DNA of 64,000 bases from Octopus vulgaris (taxonomy: Eukaryota): assembly GCA_951406725.2 (NCBI GenBank), contig OX597842.1, positions 9,052,001-9,116,000 of the forward strand, written 5' to 3'. The notes below the pieces were generated by a model. The model did no database searches, was not told the origin of the DNA, and saw only the letters and a list, made by a program, of their open reading frames with translations. The translations under genes and the position numbers were made by a program. How positions within the stretch are numbered: position 1 is the stretch's first letter; every line of letters begins with the position of its first letter. This document shows positions 1,501 through 12,373 of the stretch, in pieces.

Positions 1501-1567
1501 CGTGAGCGTCTCTGTAGTAAGCATTGGTTACACTGCGGAATCTTTCTTGTCCAGCCGTGTCCCAGAT
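1501..1567 (-). CDS. RAB26/RAB37: Switch-II exon variant D2: [22 protein letters not shown](+G)
   Basis: 67 nt, phase 0/1; strong pyrimidine tract and acceptor cacttcCAG, donor GTATAT; closest to canonical Rab26 SVTHAYYRDAH. Confidence 0.92.
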
Positions 1568-3297
1568 CTGGAAGTGAGAGAACATAAAGAGACAGAGAGA
1601 CAGAGAGAGGCAGACAGAGAGTGAGAGGGAGCGTGAGAGGGAGAGGGATTGGGTGAGTGTGTGCGTGCTGGTGAGAAATATTAGGTGTATGCTCAGAGAG
1701 AGGGAGCGAGGAGTGAAGGAGAGAGGGAGAGGGGGAGAGTGAGGGAGGGAGGGAAGAGAAAGAGGTGGAGATAGAGGTGGTGTGAGGGAGAGAGGGAGAT
1801 AGAATGAAACAGATAGAAAGGTGAGGTGTGTAACAGGGAGAGAGTGAGGAAGAGAGGGAAGAGAGGGGGAGAGAAAAGATAAGAGAGGGAGGGAGGGAAG
1901 AGAGGGAGAGAGGGGGAGAGAGGGGGGAGAGAGAGAGGGAGGAGGGGTGGGAAGAGAAAGAGGAAATAGAGAGGTGGTGTGAGGGAGAGAGGAAGACAGA
2001 AAGAAACAGATAGAAAGGGGTGGTGTGAGACAGGGAGAAAGTGAGGGAAGAGAGGGAGAGAGAGGGAGGAAGAGAGGGAGAGGGAAACAGAGTGAGGGAG
2101 AGAGGAGGAAATTGAGAGGTGAGGGGATGGAGAGAGAGGAAGAGAGGCAGACAGAAACAGATAGAGAGGGGAAAAGTGAGACAGGTAGAAAGAGAGGAAA
2201 GGAGAGGGTGAGAGGGGAAGAGGAAGAAATAGGGAAGTTGAGAAGATAAGGGTTTGAGAGGAAGTAGGGGGAGGTAGGGGAAGTGAGGGAGGGGAAGCAA
2301 GGGAAGGAGAGACTGGTAGAGAGAGGAGGAGATAGGGATATTGAGAAGGTAAGGGTTTAAGAGATGTTGTGTGGGAGAGAAAGAGAGTAGCAGATAGAGA
2401 CAGAGAAAAACAGAGAGATGGAGAGAGAGAGAGAGCGGGGAGAAAGGAAGAGAGATGGGGAGAGAAAAAGGAGGAGATAGAGATGTTGAGAAGATAAGGG
2501 TTTGAGAGGTGTTGGAGATAGAAGGGGGAAAACCGAGACAGAGAGAAACATAAAGATGGAGAGAGGTGGGAGAGAAGAGGAGAGAGATAGGGAGAGTGAG
2601 GAGATAGGGATATTGAGAAGATAAAGGTTTGAGAGGTGATCGGAGGGAGGGAGAGGGGAGAGAAAGAAGAGAAGGTAAAGGTTTGAGAAATGCTGGAGAG
2701 AGAGAGAGGGGGAGAGAGGAGGGGGAAAAACAGAGGCTGGGAGAGAGAGAGAGGGGAGGGAGAGAAATAGTGATATATATATGTGTTTGTGTGTGTGTGT
2801 GTATGTATATATATATATATATATATATATATATGTATATATATGTGTATGTATATATATACACACACACACAAAGATATATATACATATATATATAGAC
2901 ATATACATACACACGCACACACATGTATATATCTAAGTATGTATGTATATATGTGTGCATGTATGTATGTGTGTATATGTTTGTATGAACATATGTGTGT
3001 ATTTATAATTATGTAGAGAAGGAGAGCAAGAGAAAGAGAGAGAGAGTGAAACACACACTCACAAATAAATATATCTATACATATATATATACATATTATA
3101 TATACTTAGATAATATATACATGTACATACATACATATATATATGTACTTACATATACCTATATATACATATATATATATATATACACACACACATATAT
3201 ATGTGTATGTATATATATATATATACATACATATGTGTATGTGTGCATATATATATATATATTAGAAGGTTTGGAGGTGATGTACAGGTGGTATTAT

Positions 3298-3536
3298 ATA
3301 TTAGAAGAAATAAGGTGCTCAGAAATCTGGATGGTTTTATGTTTACAAATTTTTATTAATACGTCACGTTTTTATAAATTATATATTAGCGCTTGCATCC
3401 ACTCTAGTGGATTCTTCAGATTCTACTAGAGTAGATGCAAGTGCTAATATATGATTTATAAAAACATGTAACGTATTAATAAAAATCTGTAAATATAAAA
3501 TCATCCGGATTTCTGAGTCCCTTATTTCTTCTAATA
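3298..3536. repeat. Diverged fold-back hairpin, arms about 110 bp
   Basis: ttagaagaaataagg...ctctagt / actagag...ccttatttcttctaa. Confidence 0.8.
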
Positions 3537-9245: not shown

Positions 9246-12200
9246 GGACGTGTACCATGGATGGTAACTTTCTAGGTGCAATCTCATGGTTATTCATGAC
9301 TGAAGGGGGTCTCTCATATGTATATATATATATATATATATATATATATATATATATATATATATATATATATATATATATATATATATATATATACATA
9401 TAAATATATACACACACACACTCGATATTTCTGGTGCTGATGCCACATAAAAAGCATCCAGTACACTTTTTAAAGTGGTTGGTGTTTGGAAAGGCATCAT
9501 ACTGCAGAATCTAAGCCAAAGCAGATACTGGAGCCTTGGTGCAGTTCTTTGGCTAGCCAGTTCCTGATGAAACGTCCAACATGGGCCAGCATGGGAAATG
9601 AAAGATATATGATGATGGTGATAATGATGATGAAGATGATGGTGATGACGACGATGATGATGATGATGGTAAGTACTTAAATATGAGCTACTACTAGTTT
9701 CATATTGTGCAAACACAATAAACTGACATATATATATATATATATATATATATATATATATATACACACACACATATATATATATATATATATATATATA
9801 TACACACACATACATATATATACATACATATATATATACATATATATCTATGCATGTATGTATGTATATGTATATATATATATATATATATATATGTATG
9901 TATTTATATATATATATATGTGTGTGTATGTATGTATATATATATATATATACACACACATATATATATATATACACACACACACACACACATATTTGTG
10001 TATATATGTATGGGGGGCGTATGCATGCATTGAAAACAGATGTTAAATGATGATGATGATATATATATATATATATATAGCCATATATTTATATATGCGC
10101 ACACATACATATACATGTGTGTATAACTATATACATGTAATGTGTATTATATGCATTCGTATATGTGTATGTGTACAACTGTGTGCATGTACTAGTGAAA
10201 ATATAATAAACATAAAAAAACAACACAGGAAGAACAAAGTCTGACAAATAAAGTATTAGCTTAACACTTCAATGGAAAGAGGAAGTGTCTTGATATTTTG
10301 AGCGTTAGCCCTTCATCTAAAACAAAGAAAGAGTGAAAAATAGAAAGAAAAAGAAAGAATAATAGTCAAAGAAAAGAATATATAAAAAATACTGGTTTAG
10401 GGTCAGAAACCTAGTGGGATAGCTGTTCTATGTGAGTGGGAGTTAAGATGAGAAGAAGGGATCTGTGTGTAGATACAAGTTTATGGGGTTAGTTAGTGTA
10501 GAACCTTCAACAAAAATGCTAAAGTAACACTTCATACATTTGCAAGTGTTTATGTTTGTGTATGTGTAAGTGTGTATGTGTGTGCATGTATGTGTATGTG
10601 TGTGTATATGTCTATGTATGAGTGTGTATAAGTACGTATATATATGTATGTACATGTCTCTGTGTATATATACGTGTGCATATATATATATGTATATATG
10701 TGTGTGTATATGTATATATATGTATATCTTTACAGAGAGATAGAATCTATATATATCTATAGATAGATAGATATGTACACACATACACACACATAACTGG
10801 CTTCTTTCAGTTTCTGTCTACCAAATCCACTCACAAGGCTTTGGTCAGCCCAAAGCTATAATAGAAAACACTTGACCAAGGTGCCACGCAGTGGGACTGA
10901 ACCCAGAACCATGTGTTTGGGAAGGAAGCTTCTTACCACACGGCCACAGCTATGCTTATATATATGATGAGTTTCTTTTAGTTTCTGTCTACCAAATCCA
11001 CTCACAAGGCTTTGGTCAGCCCAAGGCTACAATAAAAGACACTTGCTCAAGGTTCCACGAGAGCCAGTCAGGCAGTACTGGCAACGGCCACACTCTAATG
11101 GTGTCTTTTATGTGCCAACTGCACAGGAGCCAGTCCAGCGGCACTGACAACAATCTCGCTCGAACGTATTTTCACGTGCCACCAGCACAAGTGCCAGCAA
11201 GGTGTCGCTGGTAATGCTCACGCTTGAATGGTGACTCTTTTACTCGTTTCAGTTATTAGTGTGTGTGTGTGTGTGTGTGTGTGTGTGCATCTTTTGACAA
11301 TCCAGAGACAGAAGACAGACAGATAGAGAGAGAGGTGCAGGAACAAGAGAAGGGATAGGAAGAGGAAGAGAAAATATAGTAGTAGTAGTAGTAGTAGTAG
11401 TAGTAGTAGTAGTAGTAAGTAGTAAGTAGTTGTAGTAGCAAGAGGCTGTGTAATGGTAGCAGGAAGAGGAGGTGTAGCAACAGTAGAAGTGGTAAAAGCA
11501 GGAGGAGGTACAGAGGAGGTGGAAGTAGCAGGAGGTGAGAGTAAGAGGAGAAGATGTAGTGAAAGTGGTGGGAGTAGTAAAAGGAAGTACAGAGGTAGTG
11601 GCAGTGGCAGGAGGAGGTGCAGTGAGTGGCAGTGGCAGGAGAAGGTATAGTGAGAGCAGGAGTAGCAAGTAAGTAAGTGGCAGTAAGAGATGTAGAAGTG
11701 GCAGTGGTGGTAAGAGTAGTAGTAGCAGGAGGAGGAGACGGTATAGAGGTGGCGGTAGTTGTAGCAGGAAGAGCAGGAGTAGGAGGAGGTATATATGTGG
11801 TGATAGTGGTAACAGGAAGAGGTATAGAAAAGGTGGCAGTAATAGCAGCAGGAGGAGCAGGAGTAGGAGGAGGTATAGATGTGGTGATAGTGGTAGCAGG
11901 AAGAGGTATAGAAAAGGCGGCAGTAGTAGTAGCAGGAGGAGCGGGAGTAGGAGGAGGTATAGATGTGGTGATAGTGGTAGCAGGAAGAGGTATAGAAAAG
12001 GCGGCAGTAGTAGTAGCAGGAGGAGGAGGAGATGTAGTGAGTGTGGTAGGAGGAGTAGCGCTAACAGAGCAGAAAGAGGCGTTGCAGGAGGAGGAGTTTA
12101 GGATAGGAGGAGGAGTTTAGGATCAGAGGAGGAGTTTAGGATTGGAGGAGGAGTTTAGCAGAAAGGATTGGATTAGTTGCAATAGTAATAACAATGGTAA

Positions 12201-12306
12201 TGCTAATAGTAGTAGTAATGGTAGTAATGGTAGTAGTAGTAGTAGTATTAGTAGTAGTAGTAGTAGTAGTAGTAGTAGTAGTAGTAGTAGTAGTAGAAAG
12301 ACCTAC

Positions 12307-12373
12307 CATCAGCGTCACGGTAGTATCCCCGAGTGATACTGCGGAATCTCTCTTGTCCAGCCGTGTCCCAGAT
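12307..12373 (-). CDS. RAB26/RAB37: Switch-II exon variant D1: [22 protein letters not shown](+G)
   Basis: 67 nt, phase 0/1; acceptor tactttaCAG, donor GTAGGT; intact WDTAGQE G3 motif. Confidence 0.85.

Follow-up and report, generated by a model that had tools for sequence, protein, structure and literature searches.

Duplicated switch II exons in the Rab26/37 gene of Octopus vulgaris and their counterparts in other spiralians

We analyzed a stretch of 64,000 nucleotides (nt) of the Octopus vulgaris genome (assembly GCA_951406725.2, contig OX597842.1, positions 9,052,001 to 9,116,000; hereafter the window, with positions counted from its first letter), together with 100 kilobases (kb) fetched on each side, giving an exon survey span of 264 kb. 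The locus is a single minus-strand Rab26/37 gene, encoding a small GTPase, that carries two duplicated cassettes: a pair of P-loop/switch I exons (B1 and B2) and a pair of switch II exons (D1 and D2). We think it likely that this one gene chooses between D1 and D2, that the pair is ancient, and that the resulting forms differ in the regulators they bind.

D1 lies upstream of D2 in the transcript and 10,739 nt separate them; both have CAG/GT borders, phase 0/1 and a length of 67 nt. The original prediction, made from the letters of the window, had described two such exons with intact splice sites about 10.7 kb apart, and both were confirmed where it had placed them; they lie on the minus strand, which it had not stated. 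A search of the whole genome with the D2 DNA matched D2 and D1 only, the latter with an E value of 7.8e-12, so that their likeness cannot be ascribed to chance. Between the two exons, 13 of 67 nt differ, 12 of them in the last 31 nt, as do four of 22 residues (13 I/V, 15 R/N, 16 G/A and 22 D/H, D1 given first). The count of four stands as predicted; the claim that all lie within the RabF3/RabF4 motifs does not, as, by the definitions of these motifs, one falls inside RabF3, two in the interval before RabF4, and the last directly after RabF4. Joint inclusion breaks the reading frame, as had also been foreseen: the D1+D2 product ends after 152 residues at a stop in exon E that lies 234 nt upstream of the last junction. 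The product lacking both exons stops in exon F after 122 residues, 190 nt upstream of the last junction. Since both stops satisfy the 50-nt rule for nonsense-mediated decay, both transcripts are predicted decay targets. Steric exclusion as the cause of exclusivity was rejected for octopus, given the spacing of the two exons, and a U12-type donor at D2, compared by eye with the consensus, was dropped.

To follow the use of both exons, we examined assembled sequencing runs and protein records. The run search gave 14 rows containing part of D1, none of them registered as RNA, which is uninformative either way; four runs (X1, X2, X7 and X11) were aligned to D1 with short flanks, and D2 is visible in them only through its likeness to D1. 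In run X1, from a close relative (organism A), a 99-nt contig spans the whole of D1 and runs on for 29 letters that match the start of exon E, a join that bridges 18,153 nt of the octopus genome, while a second arm bears D2 letters. Of the two pieces that enter D1 in this run, one is intronic (depth 3.5) and the other carries four different letters (depth 5.3), which likely derive from exon C. Depth, a poor measure, is 8.2 on the D1 arm, near the sum of both entering pieces, and 21.7 on the D2 arm. In run X7 (organism C) a single contig reads through the intron, D1 and then the beginning of a D exon; run X11 holds only an unspliced intron-D1 piece, and run X2 gave no contig on D1, a kind of blank that can be false. 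Transcript contigs of a cuttlefish-like animal encode full-length D1 proteins with either B exon (P0004 and P0005). P0005 clusters with a record of Sepia pharaonis, and P0004 has a D2 twin, P0122. D1 is thus live and joined to E, and each D exon is used alone in full-length transcripts. Spliced contigs, and records for all four combinations of B and D exons, uphold the mutually exclusive use of D1 and D2 proposed in the original prediction, and we regard this use as almost certainly real.

The contig counts behind these records (P0164, P0168 and P0175 against P0004 and P0122) put D1 ahead in oyster-type records (51 and 27 vs 4) and D2 ahead in the cuttlefish-like cluster (39 vs 1). Contig count is a weak measure, by which the dominant D form may vary by lineage.

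The exons belong to one gene. DNA searches with every exon found no further copies of any exon over the 264 kb beyond the B and D pairs, and protein searches of the same span with C, D1, E and F found C, E and F to be single and no extra C in the D1-D2 intron, in agreement with the prediction of one upstream exon C and one gene. Queried with the D2 peptide, the whole genome yielded 32 matches, of which 30 loci were fetched; the motif is intact in 21 of these, and none of the 21 carries a Rab26/37-type switch II exon other than D1 and D2 themselves. The genome therefore appears to hold one Rab26/37 gene, and the placing of D1 and D2 in two paralogous genes was rejected. Among the other loci, L025 (G000:C13:65156886-65156948) and L026 (G000:C4:57322875-57322937) are switch II exons of another Rab that are identical at 65 of 66 bases and lie on different contigs, being either a recent duplicate or an assembly copy.

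The assignment to Rab26/37 rests on several matches. The top PDB match of B2 is human Rab26 (2g6b, E 2.6e-16), followed by Rab1A (8.2e-10), and the named top matches of the octopus product in a protein similarity search are Rab-26/37. The G1-G5 motifs are spread over exons B, D, F and G, and the product ends in CC. The best fold match of the predicted structure (mean pLDDT, a per-residue confidence score, of 71) is again 2g6b, at 71% identity. The octopus protein thus resembles Rab26 and Rab37 in its best sequence and fold matches and in its D2-type switch II, whereas vertebrates have two genes, Rab26 and Rab37, and octopus apparently one. In mammals, Rab26 binds Atg16L1 and is a marker of synaptic vesicles (PMC4337689), and DENN/MADD is a candidate exchange factor for both Rab26 and Rab37 (PMC12495445). 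By extension from the mammalian work, the octopus protein may act on secretory or synaptic vesicles.

To trace the two switch II types across species, we collected records from three protein searches (best 120 each) and three cluster look-ups. The counts cover 47 named species of Mollusca, Annelida, Nemertea and Brachiopoda, with the two Octopus species counted as one; unnamed records, nematodes and cestodes (divergent at the site) and non-Rab26 matches are left aside, and the counts are lower bounds, as clusters conceal isoforms. Both D types occur in at least 21 of the 47 species, with D1 only in 13 and D2 only in 13; among species with two or more records, 21 of 27 have both. Across the 21 two-type species, the types differ at position 15 in all 21, at position 22 in 20, at position 13 in 12 and at position 16 in one, and at position 15 D1 has Arg and D2 has His or Asn in every case. 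His also occupies this position in 83 of 83 named deuterostome, arthropod and tardigrade records, a sample rather than a full survey; the Arg form, absent from these 83 outgroup records, is confined to spiralians within the sample, and D2 resembles the Rab26/37 of vertebrates, echinoderms and arthropods. Pairs of equal length that differ inside exon D alone were found in Octopus (two pairs), a cuttlefish-like animal and the chiton Liolophura; in the bivalves Mytilus (two), Pacific oyster and Pecten; in the gastropods Gigantopelta, Pomacea and Patella (two); and, outside molluscs, in the nemerteans Tubulanus and Lineus and the brachiopod Lingula. A linked pattern, I-R-N/Q/D vs V/I-H-H, is repeated across four classes of molluscs, Nemertea and Brachiopoda, and the Mytilus edulis model P0132 has D1 followed by D2, the same order as in octopus. 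The two annelids of the sample have one D type each. At the level of protein records, both exons are conserved across three phyla (Mollusca, Nemertea and Brachiopoda).

Some records fall outside this pattern. Cestode Rab26 has Lys at position 15 in 9 of 9 records (P0037, P0060 and others combine it with Asp 22, and are D1-like), nematodes carry other residues, and records P0008, P0002 and P0013 have Arg; the D1 type may extend past the counted phyla. The heterodont clam form (P0145, P0152, P0185, P0198 and P0340-P0343) is a hybrid with His 15 and Asn 22 and resembles a pair collapsed into one exon. In Amphiura, Rab26 isoforms P0213 and P0267 have equal length and differ over residues 187-215, which resembles a duplicated last exon.

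Window positions 12373-12338 and 1567-1532 are identical at 35 of 36 bases, synonymous sites included, and over the first 12 shared codons D1 and D2 agree at 10 of 11 degenerate codons. The mean identity at such codons among the switch II exons of octopus Rabs, taken over 170 pairs, is 0.38 (binomial p 0.0005-0.003 for D1/D2), and the only pairs to reach 0.9 are D1/D2 and one near-identical recent duplicate; for B1/B2 the value is 11 of 24. The likeness of the 5' halves may reflect gene conversion, a common nucleotide constraint or a young octopus pair. Mosaic forms occur elsewhere (Ile13 in gastropod D2, His22 in some D1, and the clam hybrid), and would fit gene conversion that spares position 15. 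On balance, we judge a single ancient origin of the D1/D2 pair very probable.

What the four changes do to the protein was considered by mapping exon positions onto other Rabs, counting from the shared motif. In the predicted model of the D1 form the exon covers residues 103-124; Arg117 lies within a helix (116-121) and Asp124 just ahead of a strand (125-131), with residues 111-115 modelled at low confidence. Position 15 is presumably on the same face as the Arg that contacts exchange factors in Rab8. The catalytic Gln and the Trp and Tyr of the aromatic triad are identical in both forms. In the Rab33B/Atg16L1 structure, contacts are made by R94 and the triad F70, W87 and Y103, with M99 nearby (PMC7395093); for the part encoded by exon D, the contact residues map to invariant positions 9, 2 and 17, and M99 to position 13, where the change is conservative. 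Modification of Rab1b at Ser76 and Tyr77 changes binding of effectors, GTPase-activating proteins (GAPs), guanine nucleotide exchange factors and GDP dissociation inhibitor (PMC5902221), and these residues correspond to exon positions 16 and 17, adjoining position 15. Both forms thus share the core effector surface, with the most constant change beside it, and we therefore favour a shift in preference for regulators or minor effectors over a complete change of effectors. It is moderately likely that the D1 and D2 forms differ in partner binding.

The second cassette of the gene was not part of the original prediction, which described the D pair and gave neither its age nor the B1/B2 switch I pair of the same window. 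B1 and B2 encode 37 residues each and are the same exon types as the P-loop pair of human RAB37. Their joint inclusion would keep the reading frame, and each is tied to its own first exon (A1-B1 and A2-B2); A2 was placed by tblastn of P0130 and P0248 (100% identity) and by its donor site. The P-loop/switch I tandem exon event of RAB37 is common to human and Drosophila (PMC8373072); the octopus B pair is this event, which is older than the D duplication, and the D pair is a second cassette apart from it. The predicted splice products A1-B1-D1, A1-B1-D2, A2-B2-D1 and A2-B2-D2 are identical to records P0249, P0139, P0248 and P0130, which are Rab-37-like isoforms X4, X3, X2 and X1 of Octopus sinensis, P0139 doubling as an Octopus vulgaris record. 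The four isoforms are thus already present in automated annotation. Two cassettes allow both switch regions to be swapped, and the gene makes four protein forms, which likely differ in the regulators they bind. The coding exons follow the order A1, B1, A2, B2, C, D1, D2, E, F, G and H on the minus strand (Table 1).

Table 1. Coding exons of the octopus Rab26/37 gene (window positions unless a contig is named).
Exon	Position	Strand	Description
A1	G000:C29:9145493-9145612		Past window end; first coding exon, spliced to B1
B1	53424-53314	minus	111 nt; alternative P-loop/switch I exon
A2, coding part	35959-35807	minus	Alternative first coding exon paired with B2; 5' end unmapped
B2	27874-27764	minus	111 nt; alternative P-loop/switch I exon
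C	18553-18512	minus	42 nt; constitutive interswitch exon; single copy
D1	12373-12307	minus	67 nt; switch II; I13 R15 G16 D22
D2	1567-1501	minus	67 nt; switch II; V13 N15 A16 H22
E-H	G000:C29:9046153 down to 9040499	minus	Below window start

Among the closest known systems is the RAB6A/A' pair of mammals, an analogy that had been drawn from the window alone and proved closer than claimed, as Rab6A residue 87 aligns with exon D position 22, the last variable residue. Residue 87 reportedly decides the difference in Rabkinesin-6 binding between Rab6A and Rab6A', as Echard et al. are said to have found in 2000. The RAB6A exon pair differs at this residue (Thr/Ala; PMC8373072 supplement), and the two isoforms, Rab6a and Rab6a', are distinguished by their binding of Rabkinesin-6 and by their pathway (PMC2174079). 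Both systems consist of a tandem duplicated alternative exon over the G3 motif and switch II of a Rab, with few residue changes. Unlike the octopus D exons, however, the RAB6A exon is longer (35 vs 22 residues), has other borders and belongs to another Rab subfamily; its changes flank helix alpha2, whereas the most constant octopus change, at position 15, sits inside that helix. The RAB6A event is dated to vertebrates in the PMC8373072 supplement, which implies an origin independent of the D pair. More broadly, the D exons resemble the class of tandem duplicated exon substitutions, with equal length and phase, homologous sequence, use of one exon at a time, antiquity and surface changes. The catalogues of such exons examined here are based on human genes (PMC8373072 and PMC9741552), and an event confined to lophotrochozoans falls outside them. 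PMC8373072 lists one RAB37 event, the human RAB37 isoforms having identical switch II, and a term search for RAB37 or RAB26 in the accessible text of PMC9741552 found neither. As the original prediction had supposed, we found no description of a Rab26/37 switch II pair in the literature searched, which includes the available parts of PMC9714508 and PMC9741552, few subscription papers and one supplement, a coverage that leaves its absence unproven; nor did the papers examined describe a small GTPase in which each switch region has such a cassette of its own.

We propose that a single duplication in an early lophotrochozoan, a stage dated to over 530 million years ago, would have produced a D2 that kept the ancestral His and a D1 that fixed Arg at position 15. 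Exclusivity would be maintained by regulated exon choice with nonsense-mediated decay as a backup, a scheme proposed because the 10.7-kb spacing rules out a steric cause in octopus. Both forms would be normal GTPases that share core effectors, as expected from their identical catalytic Gln and triad Trp/Tyr. The D1 form, with one more positive charge on helix alpha2 and a different residue at position 22, would differ from the D2 form in its affinity for exchange factors, GAPs or some effectors, on the model of the Rab6A/A' exon swap, and the promoter-linked B1/B2 choice, added to D1/D2, would give the four forms. As to how the choice is made, a predicted stem that loops out D1 (window 12473-12207, minus) has 67 bridging pairs between intron flanks of simple repeats; at least 60 pairs were reached in 1 of 400 random gene windows and in none of eight paralogue exons, and D2 has five. 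Found post hoc and made of simple repeats, this stem is no more than a lead that might bear on splicing or on adenosine-to-inosine editing. The intron between D1 and D2 also holds a tRNA-like Rfam match (window 4463-4534, minus; 34.7 bits), probably a copy derived from a short interspersed element; it was the single tRNA-like match of the Rfam scan, which gave none at the exons.

Several points weigh against this proposal. RNA support consists of contigs rather than reads, the RNA status of run X1 is presumed, and the C-to-D junctions depend on four distinguishing letters only. The X7 contig may represent a D1+D2 double inclusion, so that exclusivity may leak. Most cross-species records are automated gene models, and the genomic exon order is known in two species. 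Eight named records from five species of heterodont clams show a single mixed form, V-H-A-N, only, by which the D pair may be dispensable. The synonymous identity of the 5' halves would suggest a recent pair, or else gene conversion in an ancient one. As for the Rab6 model, by 2002 all known Rab6 binders save one bound both forms (PMC2174079), and a 2023 review calls the separate roles of Rab6A and Rab6A' still to be fully explored (PMC10392741).

Some of these points would also suit a pair that is real and old, with nearly equivalent proteins, and kept as a splicing and decay device that tunes Rab26 levels. Double inclusion and skipping both meet the premature-stop rule, X7 possibly holds a D1-to-D junction, the synonymous sites of the 5' halves are nearly identical, and a single form is recorded in heterodont clams. 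We nevertheless hold this explanation to be unlikely, since Arg vs His/Asn is kept in 21 of 21 species even though other positions are shared in some lineages, a persistence expected under selection that keeps the proteins distinct at position 15. Several independent duplications with a convergent Arg form, the octopus pair being young, would account for the near-identity of the octopus exons over their first part (35 of 36 bases); the 9 of 9 cestode records with Lys at position 15 indicate that basic residues arise there, and repeated independent origin has been reported for an ACOX1 exon event (PMC8373072). This history seems quite improbable, however, in view of the linked pattern that recurs from four mollusc classes to Nemertea and Brachiopoda, the exon order shared by mussel and octopus, and the 12 differences among 31 bases in the 3' part of the octopus exons.

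A D1 that is dead or used only at noise level, or an origin of the D exons in two paralogous genes, is scarcely credible. D1 does have the weaker pyrimidine tract (0.65 vs 0.85 for D2), its contig depth in run X1 is the lower of the two (8 vs 22, again a poor measure), and two P-loop exons lie upstream. Yet the spliced D1-E contig, the full-length D1 proteins P0004 and P0005 from transcript contigs, and the conservation of D1 in three phyla already contradict a dead duplicate, which the original prediction had named as the outcome that would overturn it, and exons C, E and F are single. The choice between D1 and D2 within one gene, with an ancient pair and forms that differ in their regulators, thus remains our preferred explanation.

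More tentatively, with the balance somewhat against it, we suggest a combinatorial Rab, in which promoter choice sets switch I and splicing, independently, sets switch II, giving four Rabs with different sets of exchange factors and effectors by cell type, and in which the charge on helix alpha2 (Arg vs His/Asn) is the conserved switch. If so, the choice would be made by cell type, for example in neurons vs gland cells, and the end of switch II would have been reached twice by exon duplication, in Rab26/37 and in vertebrate Rab6A. The exon class, a Rab precedent and the automated isoform records were already known. The finding bears on the open question of how Rabs with nearly identical switch regions choose their partners: the D pair is a natural two-state experiment, spread over three phyla and placed in a Rab linked to synaptic and secretory vesicles, that singles out one switch II residue (position 15) and a second at the position of Rab6A residue 87. 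It also means that the Rab diversity of molluscs is undercounted when tallied by gene.

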